The translations under genes and the position numbers were made by a program. The notes under the pieces were generated by a model, which did not search any database, was not told the origin of the DNA, and worked only from the letters and a program-made list of their open reading frames with translations. This document shows, in pieces, positions 1-62,460 of a stretch of DNA of 64,000 nucleotides; position 1 is the first letter of the stretch; every line of letters starts with the position of its first letter. The DNA is taken from NCBI GenBank assembly GCA_026396065.1, contig JAPLXO010000004.1, positions 18,387 through 82,386 of the forward strand, read 5' to 3'. The DNA is from Candidatus Nomurabacteria bacterium (GTDB lineage Bacteria; Patescibacteriota; Minisyncoccia; Phycocordibacterales; UBA9973).

Positions 1-2851
1 TCTGATCAGTTTTTGATTCTGTTGTAGTGAAAGAATATTCTGGTTCAATGGTGTCTTTTGTAGCGTTAGGATCAATTTTAAAGGTGGCATTAGTAGGAGC
101 TACTTGTTTTTTCGATGTAGTAGGATTAACGGTGATTGATCCTGGGGTAAGTGTCGGAGCTATGAATGATTGGATTGGAGACCATTGGCAGAAGGTCATT
201 TTAGTAGCGCCGGCATTTTCTTTGAGAGGATCTGGGTCGTTCAAACATCTCTGACGCCAGAAATATTGTTGGCCAGGTACAAGCAATGGAAGTTCTACAG
301 AAACCTTACCTGTTAAATTACCATTAGCAATCACGGGCACAGGACCAAAAGAACCAAAATGAAGATCCTTTCTTGGTTCCCAAGAAGGTCCATAATTCTT
401 AGCAACTATTTCAAATTTATATTCTCCTTTAGTACCACCGAATGAAAGCGTTGATATTGTTTTGGATGGATTCTGTGAAATGCCTAGCACCGCTCCACCA
501 GTACTTTGATTAATAATTATCAAAGGTATACCAGATGTTAATACAAGCTGATTGTTTGCTTGAGGTGTTATGTTCATACCAGTAAGTGTAGTCATTTTAG
601 GGAAGAAGTCGTCTATGTTGGAATCGTAGTCATATAGACCAGTCAGGAATGCATTTTGTCTGATCAGATCGTCATTGGCATAATCATATGGTTGATCTGG
701 TGGATTATAGGGATAATATTTATTATTTTCGGTGTAATATCCATTTGCATATGCCACTTTTATATCAGAAATTCGACTCCACTCTAAAATATCTTTAAAC
801 TTATTAACCACCATTTTTCTGGAATCATAATTTTGATTTGGAATGATTTGTCGGGTGACATATAGATCAGAATATTGGTCTGGTGCTTCTCCTGTGCCTA
901 TTTGTGTCGTACTGGTTCCACTACCATTTATTGCAAGGCTTGCAGTATTAGTTTGAGTTGTTTGAGTGTTTGTTCCTATGCCACCAATCTGTGTAGTCGT
1001 TCCTGTTGTATTTGGAGTAATGGTAGGTGACGCATCAAGATTTGGTAATTTATCTAAGTCAGCAATATTTTCAGCTACATCTAGAACATATGCGGTGGCA
1101 GAAGCAGACTTGTTCCAAACTGGGAAATAAAATGAGAATGGTTCACGAGGAGCAGGAACCTCTATAATTCCGTCTTGATAATATTGCACATATACAGGAT
1201 TATTATTTTCATCAATACCTCTCACTCTCCAATATATGTACACATACGAAGGTACACCATTAGCATTATTCCCTCCGGGAATAGTTGCCTGACTTAGCTG
1301 TGCCCCTGGGCTTGAAGCAAAGTTATATTGAAACCCGGGTTTCCATTTGATTAAATCATCATCCATTTTTAAAGGAGCAGTCGGGTACATATCATTACTG
1401 ATGACATTTGTAGTGTGTTGAGAAACTCCACCAGCAGGACTGGTAAAATTAAATGTTGCTAAGTCTGTAAAGGGTGTCGAGTTTGGAAAAGGTGCATCAG
1501 AAAATTGAATTTCATATCTCCTCGCTGCATCAATTTTTTTCCAAGAGATAAATTCATATCCAGGACGATATCCACCTGTAGGCTTTCCATTAAAATAATA
1601 TCCATTATCACCAATACATAGAGGGGTTCCCGTGCCGACATCTGCTCCTCCACGAGCGAAATATATATGACCTACATTTACAGAGCAGTCGTAATAACGT
1701 GGGTCACCTGGGTGTGCTGGAGTAGTACTGTATGATGGAACTTGGATATTAAATGGATTCGCAGAATATCCATCACTGCCATGAAAAATCATATCACCAT
1801 GCACTCTAGCATTTTGCTGATCTACTGGATACACTGACCAGTTATAAGTGTTCAGACCGTATCCAGGGAATGTATAGCTCAAAGTTGTTACTGGTAAGAC
1901 AATATCGATTCCTCCATTAGGTAAACCGGTAGGTAATCCATCAATACCATTGTATGCGACAATATGTAAATGGTGCCCGGTTATTGCTGGCTGGCCTGCT
2001 GGCTGAGAAAAGGGTTTCCATTTTAATGTTACCGGCATTGAAGGCATAGATTCCGCTGGATTGCCAAGGGACCAATACGTTATGGGATATTCTTTTGCAT
2101 TATTTTGATTGTTTTCTTTATATGCTTCAAATATAGAACTGAGGGCTTTATTCCAGATATTTGAATGCGTGTATAAACTATCTGGTGGCCAAGCTAAGCT
2201 CTCATTTCCTCCGAAACCTGCTGGAAGTTTATAACTCGCTTGAATAAAACCTTTTGAGTCAATTTCAGTTGGATCTGCATCTGATGTTGAGTTTGAAGTT
2301 CCCACAATAAATGGATCATTATGTGGAAAAGAACCCAAAAATGGCTGCAGTATGTTTAAATCATATGGCCAACCAGAAACATTTACAGATCCGGTACCAC
2401 TATCATTTAAAATAGAACTTGGATTAGGAAAAGAAAGTGATGTATATTTGTTTGGTATAGAAGATAATTGAGGCAATGGATTGAGCATCGACATGTTTAT
2501 GGTTATAGGTGAAGCAATAACACCTCTATGAGGATTACCCCACCTTTGAGGGCCTCCTTTAACAGCATTTATTGATCCCTCTTTACCAAGAGAGTGGGCG
2601 TCCTCTGCGTTATAAGAAGGCATTCCTACTTCTGAGCATTTGCCAGCATGGGTTAATGAACACGTTGCATTATCATTGGTACAAGACCATACTATTACCT
2701 TAGGAGTGCCATCATCATATTCTTCTGGCACGCCTTGATATTCTGTACTATTTGTAGTACAGCCAAGTTGAATCGCGTAAATAAACTTCGCTCCACTCAA
2801 AACCAACACCATTATTAATAAGAACTTCGAGATATTTATAAATATTTTCAT
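1..2851 (-). CDS. Large secreted protein, partial: N-terminus at 2851, C-terminus beyond the window start. About 950 aa are visible, with a signal peptide (MKIFINISKFLLIMVLVLSGAKFIYA) and Thr/Asn/Gly-rich, beta-rich repeats.
   Basis: Continuous minus-strand reading frame from ATG at 2849-2851 to position 1, translated by eye. The last ~1.1 kb was re-checked codon by codon and has no stops. The ORF is absent from the track because it runs off the window edge. Function is unknown. Confidence 0.6.
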   Translation of the reverse strand, partial: MKIFINISKFLLIMVLVLSGAKFIYAIQLGCTTNSTEYQGVPEEYDDGTPKVIVWSCTNDNATCSLTHAGKCSEVGMPSYNAEDAHSLGKEGSINAVKGGPQRWGNPHRGVIASPITINMSMLNPLPQLSSIPNKYTSLSFPNPSSILNDSGTGSVNVSGWPYDLNILQPFLGSFPHNDPFIVGTSNSTSDADPTEIDSKGFIQASYKLPAGFGGNESLAWPPDSLYTHSNIWNKALSSIFEAYKENNQNNAKEYPITYWSLGNPAESMPSMPVTLKWKPFSQPAGQPAITGHHLHIVAYNGIDGLPTGLPNGGIDIVLPVTTLSYTFPGYGLNTYNWSVYPVDQQNARVHGDMIFHGSDGYSANPFNIQVPSYSTTPAHPGDPRYYDCSVNVGHIYFARGGADVGTGTPLCIGDNGYYFNGKPTGGYRPGYEFISWKKIDAARRYEIQFSDAPFPNSTPFTDLATFNFTSPAGGVSQHTTNVISNDMYPTAPLKMDDDLIKWKPGFQYNFASSPGAQLSQATIPGGNNANGVPSYVYIYWRVRGIDENNNPVYVQYYQDGIIEVPAPREPFSFYFPVWNKSASATAYVLDVAENIADLDKLPNLDASPTITPNTTGTTTQIGGIGTNTQTTQTNTASLAINGSGTSTTQIGTGEAPDQYSDLYVTRQIIPNQNYDSRKMVVNKFKDILEWSRISDIKVAYANGYYTENNKYYPYNPPDQPYDYANDDLIRQNAFLTGLYDYDSNIDDFFPKMTTLTGMNITPQANNQLVLTSGIPLIIINQSTGGAVLGISQNPSKTISTLSFGGTKGEYKFEIVAKNYGPSWEPRKDLHFGSFGPVPVIANGNLTGKVSVELPLLVPGQQYFWRQRCLNDPDPLKENAGATKMTFCQWSPIQSFIAPTLTPGSITVNPTTSKKQVAPTNATFKIDPNATKDTIEPEYSFTTTESKTDQ

Positions 2852-3654: not shown

Positions 3655-3724
3655 AAAATTTAATAATTTGACCTATTTTTAATAATATTGTAATTATAAC
3701 CCCCCCCCACAAAAATGCAAGACA

Positions 3725-3743
3725 GCGGAGGGTTCCCCTCCGC
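3725..3743. repeat. REP palindrome (gcggaggg-ttc-ccctccgc), left flank of RAYT.
   Basis: 8-bp perfect GC stem 27 bp upstream of the RAYT start. It is the reverse complement of the hairpin at 4409-4431. Confidence 0.7.
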
Positions 3744-3769
3744 CCTAAACTCTGTTATACTAAATATAT

Positions 3770-4396
3770 ATGTCTACAAGAAAACAATCTTTTGCAATAA
3801 ATGAATTTTATCATCTATATAATAGAGGAACTGAAAAAAGAACAATATTCTTAGAAAAGAAAGATTATGAACATTTCTTGTTTTTAATGCATATTTGTAA
3901 TACGAGCAAAAGTATTGAATTAAGGAAAATTGGTAAAAACTTTGATCGCAAGGAAACTTTAGTTAATATCGGAGCGTACTGTTTAATGCCAAATCATTTT
4001 CATATTTTAGGTTACGAAAAAATAGAAGGTGGAATTTCTAAGTACATGCTTAAACTATTAACTGCATACACAATGTATTTTAATAAAAAATACAAACGAA
4101 CAGGAAAACTATACGAAGGAGTATTTAAATCAATTCATGTAAACACGGACCGTTACTTGAAATACCTTTATTCTTATATACACCTGAACCCAGCAAAATT
4201 AGTTGATAAAAATTGGAAAGAAAACAAAAAAAGAAATACTGCTGAGTTATTAAATTATGTTTTTAATTATAAATATTCTAGCTTAGAAGAGTATTTAAAT
4301 TTAAATTTTAATATAGTAAATCAAAATCCATTTCCAAATTATTTTGGAAAACTAAATGATCATAAAAAAGAACTTTTTGAATGGTTAGAAATTTAA
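3770..4396 (+). CDS. REP-associated tyrosine transposase (RAYT), IS200-like Y1 HUH family.
   Basis: 208 aa with the HUH motif LMPNHFHIL and the catalytic Tyr region YSYIHLNPAKLV typical of RAYT/TnpA_REP (PF01797 family). Flanked by inverted REP hairpins. Confidence 0.75.
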   Translation: MSTRKQSFAINEFYHLYNRGTEKRTIFLEKKDYEHFLFLMHICNTSKSIELRKIGKNFDRKETLVNIGAYCLMPNHFHILGYEKIEGGISKYMLKLLTAYTMYFNKKYKRTGKLYEGVFKSIHVNTDRYLKYLYSYIHLNPAKLVDKNWKENKKRNTAELLNYVFNYKYSSLEEYLNLNFNIVNQNPFPNYFGKLNDHKKELFEWLEI

Positions 4397-4408
4397 AAAT
4401 AACAACGA

Positions 4409-4431
4409 GGGCGGAGGGGAACCCTCCGCCC
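4409..4431. repeat. REP palindrome (gggcggaggg-gaa-ccctccgccc), right flank of RAYT, inverted relative to the left copy.
   Basis: 10-bp perfect GC stem 13 bp downstream of the RAYT stop. Confidence 0.7.
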
Positions 4432-16107: not shown

Positions 16108-16968
16108 TTGGAAAATAAAAAAGAAGAATCAAAAAGCCTTACTAACGTAAGTGGCTCTCTTCCTAAATATCTCAAGGAAATAGAAAAGGAAGAAAAATTG
16201 ACAGTTGAGCAAGAAAATCAACTTTCAGAAGAAATCAGAAACGGGAGCGCTCTTTCGTTAGAAAAATTAATTAAATCAAACTTACGTTTAGTGAAAACGG
16301 TAGCAGATCAGTTTAAAAGACAAGGAATGTTATTGCAAGATTTAATTAATGAAGGCAACCTAGGCTTAATTGAGGCGGCAAAAAGCTTTGATGAAAGAAG
16401 GGGTTTTGTTTTTAAAGTGCACGCTACAAGGGAAATTAAAAAATCTATCCGTGATGCATTAATGAAAAAAACAAAAATCATTAGGTTACCGTTTAATGAA
16501 ATTACCTCAAAAAAACAAATTGAGGACACAAAAGAAAATTTTATTAAAGAATTCGGTTATGAGGCCAGCACTGAAGAGCTATCAGCTATCTTAGGAAAAA
16601 ATGAGGAAGATATATCTGATACGATGTATTTCTCACAGGAGACAATTTTAGCTGACTCCCCTATCGATGAAGAAAACACGTTACTGGACACCCTGTCAGA
16701 CACAGCAACTCCCACAGGAGAAACTTTTTTGATAGATGAATCATTAAAAAAAGAAATTGAGCGAGCACTCAAGAATCTTAAAAACCCACGCCAAGTCGAA
16801 GTTTTAAAATTATTTTTCGGCTTTGACGAAGGTATTAACTGGACGCTTGAATCAATTGGGTCAAAATTTAATCTGACTCGTGAATCAGCTAGGCAGATTA
16901 AAGAAAAGGCGATTAAACGCCTTAGAAAGCAACCAAACATACCGTTGCTAAAAAGCTATCTGGGATAA
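16108..16968 (+). CDS. RNA polymerase sigma factor, sigma-70 family.
   Basis: Region 2 (LIKSNLRLV...LINEGNLGLIEAAKSFDERRGFVF...ATREIKKSIRDAL) and region 4 HTH (IGSKFNLTRESARQIKEKAIKRLRK). TTG start in the track; start uncertain. Confidence 0.8.
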   Translation: MENKKEESKSLTNVSGSLPKYLKEIEKEEKLTVEQENQLSEEIRNGSALSLEKLIKSNLRLVKTVADQFKRQGMLLQDLINEGNLGLIEAAKSFDERRGFVFKVHATREIKKSIRDALMKKTKIIRLPFNEITSKKQIEDTKENFIKEFGYEASTEELSAILGKNEEDISDTMYFSQETILADSPIDEENTLLDTLSDTATPTGETFLIDESLKKEIERALKNLKNPRQVEVLKLFFGFDEGINWTLESIGSKFNLTRESARQIKEKAIKRLRKQPNIPLLKSYLG

Positions 16969-17166
16969 TTCCCAACAACTCCCCTCACCGTGAAAATGGT
17001 GTGGGGAGATTTTGTTTTTTGTGCGGGATAAGAGAGTCGGTCACTTATAAATTTCTACTGAAATTTTATGCGACCCCGGCTCGGCGCGTCCGCCTCCGCC
17101 TTTCTCCTCACTTCCCCATCACAAAACAAAATCGCCGAGGACATGCCTCGGCTCATTTGTTTTTTG

Positions 17167-17237
17167 TGCGGGATAAGAGAGTCGAACTCTTCACCACAGT
17201 TTGGAAAACTGTTGTTTTACCGATAAACTAATCCCGC
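17167..17237 (-). tRNA. tRNA-Gly (anticodon TCC), 71 nt.
   Basis: Cloverleaf by hand: acceptor GCGGGAT/ATCCCGC, anticodon stem ACAGT/ACTGT with loop TTTCCAA, T-arm AAGAG-TTCGACT-CTCTT. CCA not encoded. Confidence 0.8.
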
Positions 17238-17300
17238 AATAGTTATATATTAGCATTTTATTTGTAAAAAGCCAGATATTTTGACAAAGTATTAGATGGA

Positions 17301-17702
17301 TTGTTTAATATTGACTTTTGGATTAATGGGGTGTATAATATACACATGAATGAAAATATAAATTTAGAAACAAAACCTTTAATAACACGAAAAGAAAGAA
17401 TTTTAAAAGCTCAGCAAGCTGAGACATTTGAAGATATAGATCCTGAAACAAAAAAAGATATTTTAGAGATTGCAGAAAAAAATATAACAGGCACACTAAA
17501 ACCACTCAGTTTTACTAAATTTTATAAATTTTCAACATATAAAAATAAAGGTGATTACAAACCTTATATGGATACAATGATGGAATATGCAACTACAGAA
17601 TTTAAAGAAATACTAAAAGAAGAATTAGAAAAAATAGATACAAAATTTATTCCAGCAAAAAAATTAGTGGAACAGTACGAAAAAGAAAGCGATAAAAACT
17701 AA
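17301..17702 (+). CDS. Hypothetical protein (133 aa from TTG; 118 aa if the ATG at 17346 is used).
   Basis: Charged protein-like ORF. Terminator at 17706-17732 (atcccgcaattgcgggat plus T-run). Confidence 0.45.
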   Translation: MFNIDFWINGVYNIHMNENINLETKPLITRKERILKAQQAETFEDIDPETKKDILEIAEKNITGTLKPLSFTKFYKFSTYKNKGDYKPYMDTMMEYATTEFKEILKEELEKIDTKFIPAKKLVEQYEKESDKN

Positions 17703-17897
17703 ACTAAAAATCCCGCAATTGCGGGATTTTTAGTTTTAAAAGTCGGGCTGCTGGGAATCGGCTATTACATAGCCAGGTGCTTTTCTACCTCGCTACGCTC
17801 GTACAGAAAAGCCTTTCGATATCCCAATAAAAGCAAATCAATTTGCTTTCTCCAGCCCAAACAAAAACAAACAGGTTTTACCTGTTTGTTTTTTAGT

Positions 17898-17968
17898 TCG
17901 GGCTGCTGGGAATCGAACCCAGTCAACGTGTTCCCAAAACACGTGTACTACCGGTATACTACAGCCCG
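17898..17968 (-). tRNA. tRNA-Pro (anticodon TGG), 71 nt.
   Basis: Acceptor CGGGCTG/CAGCCCG, anticodon stem CGTGT/ACACG with loop TTTGGGA, T-arm CTGGG-TTCGATT-CCCAG. Confidence 0.8.
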
Positions 17969-18450: not shown

Positions 18451-18855
18451 CTACAAAATTACATCTCTGACCACTTTTACTCTAGCCTTCTTTGTTTTCA
18501 TGTCCATAAAGACAACAATCAGATCAAACTGCCATTCTACGTTCTCTGGAACTTTTTTAGCTATTAAATACGTCTGAATTGTCCTTGAGAGACGCTTTAG
18601 CTTCCAAGGGTGCATATTATCTTCTGGTTTATACTGATCTAATGTTTCACGTTTAACACTTAGATCTCGTGTCACAGCCTTAACCTCCACAAAATGTATC
18701 CGACTTCCCTCCTGTGCTACAATATCTATCTCACCATACTTTCGAGTATAGTTTCTATCTAGAATAGAAAAACCTTGTTTCACGAGAAACTTACAAGCAA
18801 TATTTTCTCCCATTTCCCCTATCTTCTGTGTTTCAGAAGTAAATACTTTAGGCAT
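18451..18855 (-). CDS. yraN: YraN family (UPF0102) predicted endonuclease.
   Basis: 134 aa. GEMGENIACKFLVKQGFSILDRNYTRKYGEIDIVAQEGSRIHFVEVKA matches the YraN signature. Confidence 0.75.
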   Translation of the reverse strand: MPKVFTSETQKIGEMGENIACKFLVKQGFSILDRNYTRKYGEIDIVAQEGSRIHFVEVKAVTRDLSVKRETLDQYKPEDNMHPWKLKRLSRTIQTYLIAKKVPENVEWQFDLIVVFMDMKTKKARVKVVRDVIL

Positions 18856-18936: not shown

Positions 18937-19176
18937 TACTATAAAAAAGCTGTTTTTATGTCTTTTATATAAAATGTCTTTATAATATAAGCTAGAATGG
19001 AAATTAACTACTTAAATAAACAGATAAATATATGTCCTTTATACACAATACCCCCACAGTTATCCACAGTTTTAGATAAAATCCTTACAAAATAAGGAAT
19101 AAACAAAAGGACAACTTGCTAAGTTTTTGAATTGATTTCGTTGTGAATCCGAGCTGATTAGGCTAGTACTTAAATG

Positions 19177-19248
19177 TGCACCCGGAGGGATTCGAACCCC
19201 CAACAACTGCTTCGAAGGCAGGCATGATATCCATTTCACTACGGGTGC
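19177..19248 (-). tRNA. tRNA-Arg (anticodon TCG), 72 nt.
   Basis: Acceptor GCACCCG/CGGGTGC, anticodon loop CTTCGAA, T-arm GGGGG-TTCGAAT-CCCTC. There is one C·T mismatch at the top of the anticodon stem. Confidence 0.65.
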
Positions 19249-19430
19249 AGTAAATGTCTTATAAGTATAAGCTAAATAAAGAATTAAGTAAATCAATAAT
19301 TTTGCATTAGAAATAAAAAAGTATATAATACATGTATAAAATTTTATAAATTAGCCACGCGTTTATGGTTTAGTGATTTATCATGCCACCGAGCTACGTT
19401 TAGGTTTCAATATTAAGAGTTAAGATAAAA

Positions 19431-19501
19431 GCGGTTATGGTTTAGTGGTAGAACACGTCCTTGCCAAGGATGAGACGGGAGTTCGATTCTCCCTAGCCGC
19501 A
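19431..19501 (+). tRNA. tRNA-Gly (anticodon GCC), 71 nt.
   Basis: Acceptor GCGGTTA/TAGCCGC, anticodon stem CGTCC/GGATG with loop TTGCCAA, T-arm GGGAG-TTCGATT-CTCCC. Confidence 0.8.
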
Positions 19502-19521
19502 CACAAAGAAGAATTAGCAAA

Positions 19522-29257: not shown

Positions 29258-30205
29258 TTATTTTTTACTATGAAATTTCTTATGGACTTCGAGAAGTTGC
29301 TTGTCAGTCACGTGAGTATAAATTTGAGTAGTAGCGATATTGGAATGCCCTAGCATCATTTGCACACTCCGGATATCTGCACCATTTGAAAGTAAATCAG
29401 TGGCGAAGCAGTGCCTCACCACGTGCGGGGTAACTTTTTTTGAAATACCAGCCATCGTGGCATATTGTTTTACAATTCTTTCTATCGATCGGCGAGTGAG
29501 AGCTTTCGTATCGAAAACATCATCACCATTTTTATTTTTTGTTTTTTGTGTCACTTCTTTGCCGACTTGGATAAACAAAGCTTCACTCATATCTTTTCTT
29601 TTTGCTAAATACGCCTTCACTGCATTTCGTGCATCTTCGGAAATAAAAACCACCCGAACCTTTCCACCTTTTCCACGAATAGAATATTCATCTACACTCA
29701 AATCCAAATCACTAGTGAGAGAGCAAAGTTCTGACACACGAAGACCCGTAGAAAAAAGTAATTCGAGAATTGCTTTATCACGGAGAGATTTCAAATCATT
29801 ATCTTTCGGCGCATTTAATAATCTAGTAAGTTCAGCGGGGGAAATGAGGTCGAGGGATCGCTCTTGAACTTTGGCGAGCTCTATCTTGTCAGCATGGAGG
29901 GATGTGATATCTCTCTTTGCTAAGAATTTTAAAAATACACGAAGTGCTATCAAATAATAATTCTGAGTTTTTTTAGATAAAGTTTTTCCTGTCGCTCTAT
30001 TATTACCAGTAGACTGTCTATTCAGCCAGAGACGAAATTCACGAACAACTTGGTCGGTAATTTCTTTCGCATTTTGTATCTTTGTATATTCAAAAAACCG
30101 AGTGAGGTAGTGCCCATAATTTTCGACAGTTTTAATACTGGAACCTTTTTCAATTTCCAAATATTCTAAAAATTGTCTTTTTAAGTTTTCTATCTCGGAT
30201 GCCAT
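29258..30205 (-). CDS. xerC: Tyrosine site-specific recombinase, XerC/XerD family.
   Basis: 315 aa. N-terminal SAM-like domain. C-terminal catalytic R...HxxR...Y with VRHCFATDLL and LGHSNIATTQIYTHV. Confidence 0.8.
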   Translation of the reverse strand: MASEIENLKRQFLEYLEIEKGSSIKTVENYGHYLTRFFEYTKIQNAKEITDQVVREFRLWLNRQSTGNNRATGKTLSKKTQNYYLIALRVFLKFLAKRDITSLHADKIELAKVQERSLDLISPAELTRLLNAPKDNDLKSLRDKAILELLFSTGLRVSELCSLTSDLDLSVDEYSIRGKGGKVRVVFISEDARNAVKAYLAKRKDMSEALFIQVGKEVTQKTKNKNGDDVFDTKALTRRSIERIVKQYATMAGISKKVTPHVVRHCFATDLLSNGADIRSVQMMLGHSNIATTQIYTHVTDKQLLEVHKKFHSKK

Positions 30206-62013: not shown

Positions 62014-62460
62014 ATGCAATTTAAAGTACCACAATTTTTAGATATAGAAGATAAAATATTTGGTCCATTTACCTTTAGACAATTTGCGTACTTAGCAGGA
62101 GGTGGTGGATTATGTTTTGTCATATACAGAGCATTACCTTGGTATTTTGCTATTTTTTTAATTTTACCACTTGCAGGCCTTTCTTTAATGCTAACGTTTT
62201 ATAAAATAAACAACAAGCCTTTCCTTAATGTAATAGAATCAGCTTTCAAATATGCTTTTGCAAGTAAACTCTACATTTGGAAAAGAAGAATGAAAAAGAA
62301 AGAAGATCAAGAAAAAGAAGCGCAAGTAGCGGAAGATAAAAAAATAGAAATGCGAGGTGCTACACCGCTTGGAACAAGCAGATTAAAAGATTTATCTTGG
62401 AGTTTAGATGTATTAGATGTAAAAAAGGGGAATGAAGATGAATTAAAAAACACACAATAA
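62014..62460 (+). CDS. Small two-TM membrane protein, PrgI/VirB3-like candidate.
   Basis: 148 aa. N-terminal FLDIEDKIFGPFTFRQFAYLAGGGGLCFVIY...YFAIFLILPLAGLSLMLTFY hairpin. Immediately upstream of VirB4, the usual position of VirB3/PrgI. Confidence 0.4.
   Translation: MQFKVPQFLDIEDKIFGPFTFRQFAYLAGGGGLCFVIYRALPWYFAIFLILPLAGLSLMLTFYKINNKPFLNVIESAFKYAFASKLYIWKRRMKKKEDQEKEAQVAEDKKIEMRGATPLGTSRLKDLSWSLDVLDVKKGNEDELKNTQ

Follow-up and report, generated by a model that had tools for sequence, protein, structure and literature searches.

Family P, a candidate tRNA-mimicking integrative mini-element 3' of tRNA genes in Candidatus Nomurabacteria

The 64,000-nt stretch analysed here (the window, 34% G+C) comes from a genome of Candidatus Nomurabacteria, a lineage of the candidate phyla radiation (CPR, or Patescibacteria). 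Downstream of an intact tRNA-Pro(TGG) gene on its minus strand lies a non-coding element of about 100 nt, which we name family P, held between the last 18 nt of the tRNA gene and a spare copy of the same 18 nt. We found family P 3' of four tRNA species in Nomurabacteria contigs, and at the tRNA-Pro site in three lineages. On balance, and with confidence only a little better than even, we consider family P to be a non-autonomous, tRNA-mimicking integrative mini-element that lodges 3' of tRNA genes. A sequence-only reading of this stretch had offered two options, either that tRNA genes had served repeatedly as sites of integration or that a miniature element is systematically linked to tRNAs, and it is the second that fits, as the same ~100-nt element recurs at the four tRNA species together with a copy of the local tail. 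Partial tRNA repeats left by integrase elements are already known; a gene-less unit of ~100 nt with tRNA-matched arms, present at four tRNA species, appears to be new, having been found neither in Rfam nor in full-text searches.

The tRNA-Pro repeat and the unit it brackets

The window holds one cluster of four tRNA genes (ARAGORN; Rfam): an intact tRNA-Gly(TCC) (17166-17237, minus strand; both programs), the intact tRNA-Pro(TGG) (17898-17968, minus strand; ARAGORN, and 60.3 bits with the Rfam tRNA model) and, from ARAGORN, tRNA-Arg(TCG) (19176-19248, minus strand) and tRNA-Gly(GCC) (19431-19502, plus strand). A pattern search for the 18-mer TCGGGCTGCTGGGAATCG (on the tRNA strand, CGATTCCCAGCAGCCCGA / CGAUUCCCAGCAGCCCGA) gave two exact copies in the window and no further one with up to two mismatches allowed. 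The first is the end of the tRNA-Pro gene itself (17898-17915, minus strand), and the second is the spare 3' end CGAUUCCCAGCAGCCCGA (17743-17760, minus strand). The repeat and its position in the gene had been given correctly in the sequence-only reading, whereas the spare copy, placed there at 17742-17759, has to be shifted to 17743-17760, and the spacing from start to start is 155 and not 156. The repeated stretch spans T-loop positions 56-60, the 3' strand of the T-stem, the 3' strand of the acceptor and the discriminator, and CCA is absent from both copies. As none of 100 dinucleotide shuffles contained a match with two mismatches or fewer, the repeat is real and not a product of chance. 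That chance or an assembly artefact created it can be regarded as refuted: tRNA-derived sequence can in principle mislead assemblers, and nothing else speaks in favour of this explanation, but the shuffles exclude the former and the same architecture is found in independent assemblies from JGI, ENA, NCBI and Logan.

Read along the tRNA strand, a family-P unit consists of a 5' arm of ~7 nt, hairpin 1 (AAAGCAAA…UUUGCUUU), a second arm of ~10 nt, a conserved CGAAAGG junction, hairpin 2 (GCUUUUCU…AGAAAAGC, with a variable tip), a likewise conserved CACCUGG, hairpin 3 (GGCUAU-GUA-AUAGCC) and the tRNA tail. In the window, where all of these parts lie on the minus strand, the body extends over 17761-17859 (123 bits with the covariance model R1, see below), with the 5' arm UGGGCUG at 17853-17859, hairpin 1 at 17829-17850, the second arm, a complement of the T-arm (UUGGGAUAUCG), at 17817-17827, the CGAAAGG junction at 17812-17818 and hairpin 2 at 17779-17812. 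The tail-side end (17760-17779) is formed by CACCUGG and hairpin 3 (GGCUAUGUAAUAGCC). Directly 3' of tRNA-Pro, between the gene and the body, is an A/U-rich hairpin with a U-run (T1; 17863-17893, minus strand), an inverted repeat complementary at 14/14 positions. On the far side of the spare tail, a perfect 18+18 palindrome (17701-17736), picked up both as an inverted repeat and in a terminator scan, looks like a bidirectional terminator that would close the element on the minus strand and the open reading frame (ORF) 17346-17702 on the plus strand. A single ORF crosses the body, a TTG frame of 53 aa overlapping the tRNA.

Taken alone, the window unit folds at -45.4 kcal/mol (z = -4.9), and all units, folded singly, take the same shape (z -4.4 to -7.1). 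RNAalifold, run on a MAFFT alignment, returns a structure of 4 helices with compensatory changes in 16/39 pairs. In it the 3' strand of the acceptor is paired with the 5' arm, and the second arm covers the 3' strand of the T-stem together with the T-loop's 3' half. In a second alignment of six distinct copies (A6), 93.9% of cells are standard pairs and both sides have changed in 24/39 pairs; none of 500 shuffles attains any of the pairing measures, and pairing falls to 39-52% in controls with slid partners. Since G.U cells outnumber A.C cells by 10 to 1, the fold is assigned to the tRNA-sense strand. Element and spare tail are thereby modelled as an acceptor/T-arm-like helix, with recurrent mismatches and bulges between arms and tail, that carries three hairpins; in the window the spare tail pairs with both arms.

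The arms are specific to the tRNA beside which they lie, making 10-13 of 13 pairs with the cognate tail and 6-9 with non-cognate tails. At G50.U64 of tRNA-Arg the opposite arm carries A-U, at U5.G68 of tRNA-Gly(GCC) it carries C-G, and the T-loop half is opposed by AGUCG where the loop reads CGACU (locus L018) and by AAUCG where it reads CGAUU (locus L012), not by UUCG. As the arms are Watson-Crick at positions where the tRNA has G.U, they are complements of the tail and not copies of the tRNA 5' strand.

Several identities can be set aside for the unit. It is not a tRNA with a cloverleaf, as neither ARAGORN nor the Rfam tRNA model matches any unit (E <= 0.5-1; only the four true tRNAs of the window are recovered), and Rfam as a whole, at permissive E-values, matches only true tRNAs in the window region and in six loci. 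Transfer-messenger RNA (tmRNA) is rejected by the negative ARAGORN result and by unit ends that mimic Pro, Arg or Gly tRNAs, not Ala; hammerhead, twister and other small ribozymes, by the lack of their core motifs and of an Rfam match. The copies are not a retroposed mature tRNA or 3' tRNA fragment, as they lack CCA and have the gene trailer, nor does the unit represent a T-loop intron, the upstream tRNA being already intact. Tandem duplication of a ~150-bp block would not leave only 18-29 nt in common and the remainder unrelated, and a casposon-type insertion is rejected by the variable repeat length (18-29 nt) and by the lack of terminal inverted repeats and of a protein gene.

Copies at other tRNA genes, and occupied and empty sites

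Related contigs were obtained with three baits: the neighbouring sigma-factor gene (three loci from a genome scan, of which L002 is syntenic), a 43-nt tRNA-Pro pattern (eight contigs from a metagenome scan) and homologues of the CCA-adding enzyme (further contigs, including L014). The covariance model, built from five family-P copies, recovers all five training copies at 112-128 bits. At tRNA-Pro it scores 123 bits in the window, 127 in L012 and 112 in L006, and elsewhere 120 in L009 (tRNA-Gly GCC), 119 in L014 (tRNA-Arg) and 55 in L018 (tRNA-Gly UCC). Within the window the family-P core occurs only once.

Locus L012 shares its junction (…GGGAATCG|GCTACTACATAGCC…) with the window and has a homologous body of ~100 nt (83% identical). 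At L006 the tRNA-Pro and tRNA-Gly genes are co-oriented, and the 122 nt that separate them are taken up by a unit with a decayed tail, which would therefore belong to the tRNA precursor. A second site in L009, recovered by BLAST, has a family-P copy 3' of tRNA-Gly(GCC) that ends in the tail of that tRNA (CGATTCTCCCTAGCCGCACAA), and in L014, the CCA enzyme of which is 97% identical to that of the window, the unit lies 3' of tRNA-Arg(TCG) with a repeat of 22 nt. The diverged unit of L018, 3' of tRNA-Gly(UCC), has a weaker second unit (17 bits) in tandem behind it, farther from the tRNA and more decayed in both tail and body, as is expected from serial insertion. Family-P units terminate with a copy of the local tRNA's final 18-22 nt. 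The direct repeats are 18 nt long at tRNA-Pro, 22 nt at tRNA-Arg (L014), 21 nt at tRNA-Gly GCC (L009) and 29 nt at tRNA-Gly UCC; all begin at C56 of the T-loop, beside an intact tRNA gene, and the repeats of the four tRNAs have little in common beyond CGAWTC.

Sites at tRNA-Pro are more often empty than occupied. The sequence-only reading had proposed a comparison with relatives, in which an insert conserved and syntenic in all of them would speak against insertion; we found instead that 12 of 15 distinct tRNA-Pro loci are empty and three occupied. The most direct comparison is that of L012 with L009: positions 1-264 of L012 match 2199-2462 of L009 at 99.6% identity, and positions 364-643 (280 nt) match 2444-2723 at 97.9%. 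In L009 both matches cover the same 19 nt, the repeat, so that the loci differ by the clean presence or absence of 118 bp, that is the element plus one copy of the repeat. In L012 the native trailer (CAAGGAGGGG…) comes after the spare tail. The syntenic locus L002 belongs to a metagenome-assembled genome of Nomurabacteria, with 78-86% DNA identity to the window in the genes of RNase Y, HU, YraN and the CCA enzyme; the order of its tRNAs agrees with that of the window, and neither spare tail is present. A four-way alignment of the tRNA-Arg(TCG) site shows L014 occupied, L002 and L015 empty, and the window with a decayed relic (19141-19175, minus strand), made up of a degenerate tail copy tgtgaatccgagctgatt and 15 nt that resemble the end of family-P hairpin 3.

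Mobile element, host RNA or folded integration site

A partial 3' repeat of a tRNA lying past the intact tRNA has long been established as the footprint of tyrosine integrases, and serial insertion at tRNA genes has been described for the tycheposons of Prochlorococcus (bioRxiv 10.1101/2020.12.28.424599). Family P shares with such elements the intact tRNA followed by a partial 3' copy, a block of identity that starts in the T-loop and reaches variably past the tRNA end, serial insertions that push older copies outward, and the persistence of decayed partial tRNAs. It differs from them in its length (~100 nt and not kilobases), in the lack of an integrase or of any gene, and in a conserved, covarying body whose arms pair with the displaced tail. 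The resemblance suggests that the unit could be the scar of a large prophage or island in tRNA-Pro whose interior was later lost, as the footprint is the classic one. We hold this to be highly improbable, because deletions that occurred independently would not have produced six copies, spread over four tRNAs, of one ~100-nt stretch with the same ends, what remains is a covarying structure, no integrase fragments were found among the ORFs at the element, and two pattern scans found no true copy of the core in IMG/VR.

We instead favour a mechanism in which the unit itself would be the moving part. It would carry a copy of the last 18-22 nt of the tRNA, from T-loop C56 to just past the discriminator, and this copy would recombine with the tRNA gene inside the shared stretch, leaving the gene intact and an extra tail displaced to the far end of the element. 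Integration within the stretch from the T-loop to the 3' end would be performed by an enzyme encoded elsewhere; a T-loop class of sublocation for integration into tRNA genes was reportedly defined by Williams (Nucleic Acids Research, 2002). This recombination step is suggested by the native trailers at three sites, the gradient of decay in L018, the relics and the patchy distribution. In L012 and L014, and at the tRNA-Gly(TCC) gene of the window, it is the spare tail that borders the original trailer or terminator, as expected if recombination takes place inside the gene. The unit's two arms, each complementary to a part of the tail (one to the 3' strand of the acceptor, the other to that of the T-stem and to the 3' half of the T-loop), would come into play upon read-through from the tRNA promoter, when element and tail would fold as a tRNA-like acceptor/T helix with three hairpins. 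Enzymes of tRNA processing could then excise the folded unit, and the insert would be harmless or neutral. Such transcription and tRNA-like processing are likewise a proposal, prompted by the sense-strand fold and by the L006 unit inside what must be a tRNA precursor. Loss would proceed through the reverse reaction or through slippage between the repeat copies, and the predicted circle junction would join tail, trailer and 5' arm (...CAGCCCGA-N-GGGCTGG...).

A number of observations weigh against this mechanism. At tRNA-Pro of the window, the A/U-rich hairpin beside the intact gene is shared with the element-free L002 (7690-7728) and so stands on the 'wrong' side of the unit, unlike the native flanks of the three sites just named and of tyrosine-integrase elements. 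The simple model puts the native terminator by the spare tail, so this locus would require an extra event, or insertion 3' of the terminator, and the position of the hairpin is genuine counter-evidence to the simplest version of the model. The presence/absence differences fit insertion and deletion between direct repeats alike. No autonomous, recombinase-bearing relative with the same ends was found in the 34 fetched loci or in IMG/VR (two core patterns), and one exact and one gapped scan of IMG/VR for the family-P core gave a single chance match without a model score. The covariation rests on six distinct copies, and their alignment was fitted to the covariance model, the MAFFT alignment being the independent result. 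Finally, the mechanism leaves without explanation how the arms come to match a new tRNA.

In IMG/VR, two scans for the tRNA tails and one for the core of family G (see below) likewise returned nothing real. The viral matches L005 and L034 were rejected as chance; both are in high-GC phages and have neither a tRNA nor a model match.

The tRNA-Pro locus of the window has changed in other respects. The ORF at 17346-17702, between the tRNAs, is unrelated to the two ORFs of L002 in the same slot, and the promoter region upstream of tRNA-Gly(TCC) (17238-17354) is 88% identical to that of L002 right up to the ATG. The swapped ORF cassette and the misplaced hairpin together point to more than one event at this locus. 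In this comparison (window 17238-17702 with L002 6972-7691), the slot ORFs (118 aa in the window; 116 and 85 aa in L002) are unrelated both to each other and to every other fetched locus, and the slot looks like a swap-prone site for small ORFs.

The observations made so far also bear on a different explanation, in which the unit is a host gene for a small tRNA-like RNA, perhaps a decoy or a substrate of a tRNA-binding enzyme, that arose by partial tandem duplication of the adjacent tRNA, was inherited vertically and became patchy only by deletion between the repeats. The sense-strand fold with its strong covariation would be natural for such an RNA, as would an acceptor-like stem and discriminator identical to those of the real tRNA and the terminator-like hairpins after the spare tail in the window and in L018; moreover, at tRNA-Pro of the window and in L018 the unit is placed after the hairpin of the tRNA, like a separate gene. 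Yet independent duplications cannot yield one core (CGAAAGG, hairpin 2 and CACCUGGCUAUGUAAUAGC) at four tRNA identities, and units preceded by a terminator leave no space for a promoter. Most relatives lack the unit, decayed copies exist (window tRNA-Arg, the L006 tail, the second L018 unit), and the native trailer stands behind the spare tail, not behind the tRNA, at window tRNA-Gly and in L012 and L014. We regard the host-RNA explanation as possible but doubtful.

Family P resembles the tRNA-like domain of tmRNA, the YrlA/Y RNAs, the viral 3' tRNA-like structures and mascRNA in presenting a mimic of the acceptor/T-arm and a possible substrate for RNase P and the CCA-adding enzyme. Unlike those RNAs, its mimic uses a literal duplicate of the neighbouring tRNA's tail, and it has neither T-loop nor anticodon arm nor Rfam match.

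The complementarity of the arms admits yet another explanation, namely that arms and tail rebuild the duplex tRNA 3' end within a folded single strand of DNA or RNA, which a host recombinase would then pair with the tRNA gene, so that the arms would set the target. Folded single-strand recombination sites are known in the attC sites of integrons and in the attP(+) site of the CTX phage, which uses the host XerCD. Family P would share with these an imperfect hairpin of ~60-150 nt that rebuilds a duplex site, with structure outweighing sequence, and, with CTX, the lack of a recombinase of its own; it departs from them in a target that is a tRNA gene and not attI or dif, in a helix interrupted by an extra hairpin, and in a single-stranded DNA form that is putative. 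In favour of a folded strand, the arms are the Watson-Crick complement of the whole tail, including the 3' half of the T-loop, they change along with the tRNA species, the helix shows recurring mismatches and bulges, no enzyme is encoded by the element, and the window has both a XerA-type recombinase and a Y1/IS200-like gene flanked by GC hairpins. On the other hand, nothing found links either enzyme to the element, CGAWTC is nearly all that the repeats of the four tRNAs have in common, neither a single-stranded nor a circular intermediate was seen, and selection for a tRNA-like RNA fold explains the pairing of arms and tail equally. Folded-strand integration therefore seems to us quite unlikely. 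One might speculate further that family P represents a gene-less class of CPR mobile elements with a programmable address, in which the arms and the 18-22-nt tail copy would rebuild the target in a folded strand of DNA or RNA, a host recombinase would insert it at the matching tRNA, and a change in the arms would retarget it; as a joint claim this is unlikely.

If family P moves as an integrative mini-element, as we favour, the enzyme would act in trans. Among 49 ORFs of the window scanned with Pfam, only two recombinase-like genes were detected. The nearest is a XerA/XerD-like gene (29258-30205), 11 kb from the element, in agreement with the sequence-only reading, which had noted a Xer-like recombinase at 29258 but not adjacent. 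This gene keeps S15, NYN and Exo_endo_phos as neighbours in relatives, and because of this constant neighbourhood it looks like a recombinase of the housekeeping type. The other is a weakly matching Y1/IS200-like ORF of 208 aa (3770-4396; 27 bits in Pfam), which scores 30 bits, far under the cut-off, with the model of REP-associated tyrosine transposases (RAYT; REP, repetitive extragenic palindrome). The inverted GC-rich hairpins GGCGGAGGGGAACCCTCCGCC flank it at 3724-3744 and 4410-4430, their only occurrences in the window, in a RAYT/REP-like arrangement.

Family P can be likened to REP/REPIN sequences moved by RAYT (Y1) and to the palindrome-associated transposable elements (PATEs) derived from IS200/IS605, in that all are short, non-coding, hairpin-rich and intergenic, and in movement in trans, which for family P is presumed, but REP/REPIN sequences and PATEs neither generate a long direct repeat nor depend on tRNA 3' ends. 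We rejected a REP/RAYT or PATE identity, as long direct repeats are present and the Y1-flanking hairpins have no sequence relation to the element; no sequence is shared by family P and the REP-like hairpins of the window, and the 8-mer GGCGGAGG common to these hairpins and family G was noticed post hoc and is too short to count. A further comparison is with the cis-mobilizable elements (CIMEs) known from work on streptococcal integrative and conjugative elements, which are flanked by att sites and lack recombination genes. Family P is similarly flanked by att-type repeats, has no recombinase and is presumably moved in trans; unlike CIMEs, which are kilobase-sized deletion derivatives of a known autonomous element, it has no known parent and is a single structured module.

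The known occupants of tRNA genes are kilobase-sized elements with an integrase of their own, whereas family P is a gene-less, structured module of ~100 nt found at several tRNA species, in CPR hosts with very small genomes that are poor in mobile elements. We found no published description of such elements in full-text literature searches, which is not proof of absence. Were it mobile, family P would be about the smallest site-specific integrative element described, and a simple system in which to study whether proteins or base pairing select the tRNA target, and what relation attP sites have to tRNA-like structures. Were it expressed as a tRNA mimic, it would constitute a new RNA family absent from Rfam, which could matter for tRNA processing. 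Either way, it accounts for the partial tRNA copies with which pipelines annotating these genomes will be confronted.

Family G, other units and neighbouring genes

The sequence-only reading had also noticed a 3'-end duplicate at the neighbouring minus-strand tRNA-Gly, and this proves to be an exact repeat of 29 nt with a spacing of 145. One copy (17156-17184, minus strand) comprises the 3' end of tRNA-Gly(TCC) and 11 nt of trailer, and the other (17011-17039, minus strand) is the spare equivalent. The repeat begins at the same T-loop position as that of tRNA-Pro (TT|CGA) and extends 11 nt beyond the tRNA end. After the spare tail comes a terminator hairpin of the L002 type (16979-17008, minus strand); window 16977-17039 aligns with L002 6862-6918, which is adjacent to the tRNA there. 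Between the copies, composition and folds delimit a second element, family G (17040-17155, minus strand), which contains the most G+C-rich 80 nt of the window (64% G+C) and a terminator-like hairpin of its own (17134-17152, minus strand). Its 5' arm is complementary to the spare tRNA-Gly tail in the folds, which further show a GGCG-GACG-CGCC hairpin and a GUCGC...GUGAC helix around an AAAUUUC/GAAAUUU hairpin. The core CCGAG-N-CGGGGUCGC…GUGAC recurs in L008, L009 and L012, with compensatory changes between GGCG/CGCC, GGAU/AUCC and GGAC/GUCC. As judged from their sequences, families G and P are unrelated but have the same layout.

The family-G-like elements of these three loci (L008 118-250, L009 2272-2444, L012 74-246) lie between tRNA-Gly and tRNA-Pro, in the orientation opposite to that of the window copy. 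They abut a tRNA-tail-like sequence, TCGAACCTTGGAGATCCCC, and the same spacer has a decayed tRNA-Pro tail (AGCCCAGCAGCCAGA).

Other kinds of unit were met at tRNA genes. In L018 (4105-4255 and 505-930), a third kind, 3' of tRNA-Gly(GCC), is closed by an 8-bp stem with an 11-nt copy of the end of that tRNA, and tRNAs as well as units are followed by terminator hairpins of one similar type (ACCAGC…GCTGGT, four in all), as if the terminator moved with the unit. In L027 the terminator of tRNA-Pro is succeeded by three G+C-rich hairpins in a row, their loops of the GAAG type (45-215, minus strand; GCGCUGAAGCGC, CCACGCGAAGCGUGG, CUUCUGCUGAAGCAGAAG), unrelated to families P and G. At 19359-19430 of the window, the first 17 nt of tRNA-Gly(GCC) are present in a further copy (GCGTTTATGGTTTAGTG, 1 mismatch) at a distance of exactly 72 nt upstream of the gene, and the 55 nt after it are absent from the close relative L014. 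This duplication may represent a different type of insertion, one that copies the tRNA 5' end.

Among the neighbouring genes, the sigma-70 gene beside the tRNA cluster (16108-16968) is 44% identical to its counterpart in L002, with flanking genes at ~80-86% DNA identity, and its next-best database matches are sigma factors of Bacteroidota (~50%). A YraN/UPF0102 gene with a nuclease fold (18451-18855 in the window) and the gene of the CCA-adding enzyme flank the tRNA cluster in every related contig examined. Farther away, the region 42398-63130 contains large co-oriented ORFs without a Pfam match (1469, 965 and 868 aa), a He_PIG-repeat protein of 1283 aa and, at 62014-62460, a protein of the PrgI family (type IV secretion); it may be a secretion or conjugation-like gene block.

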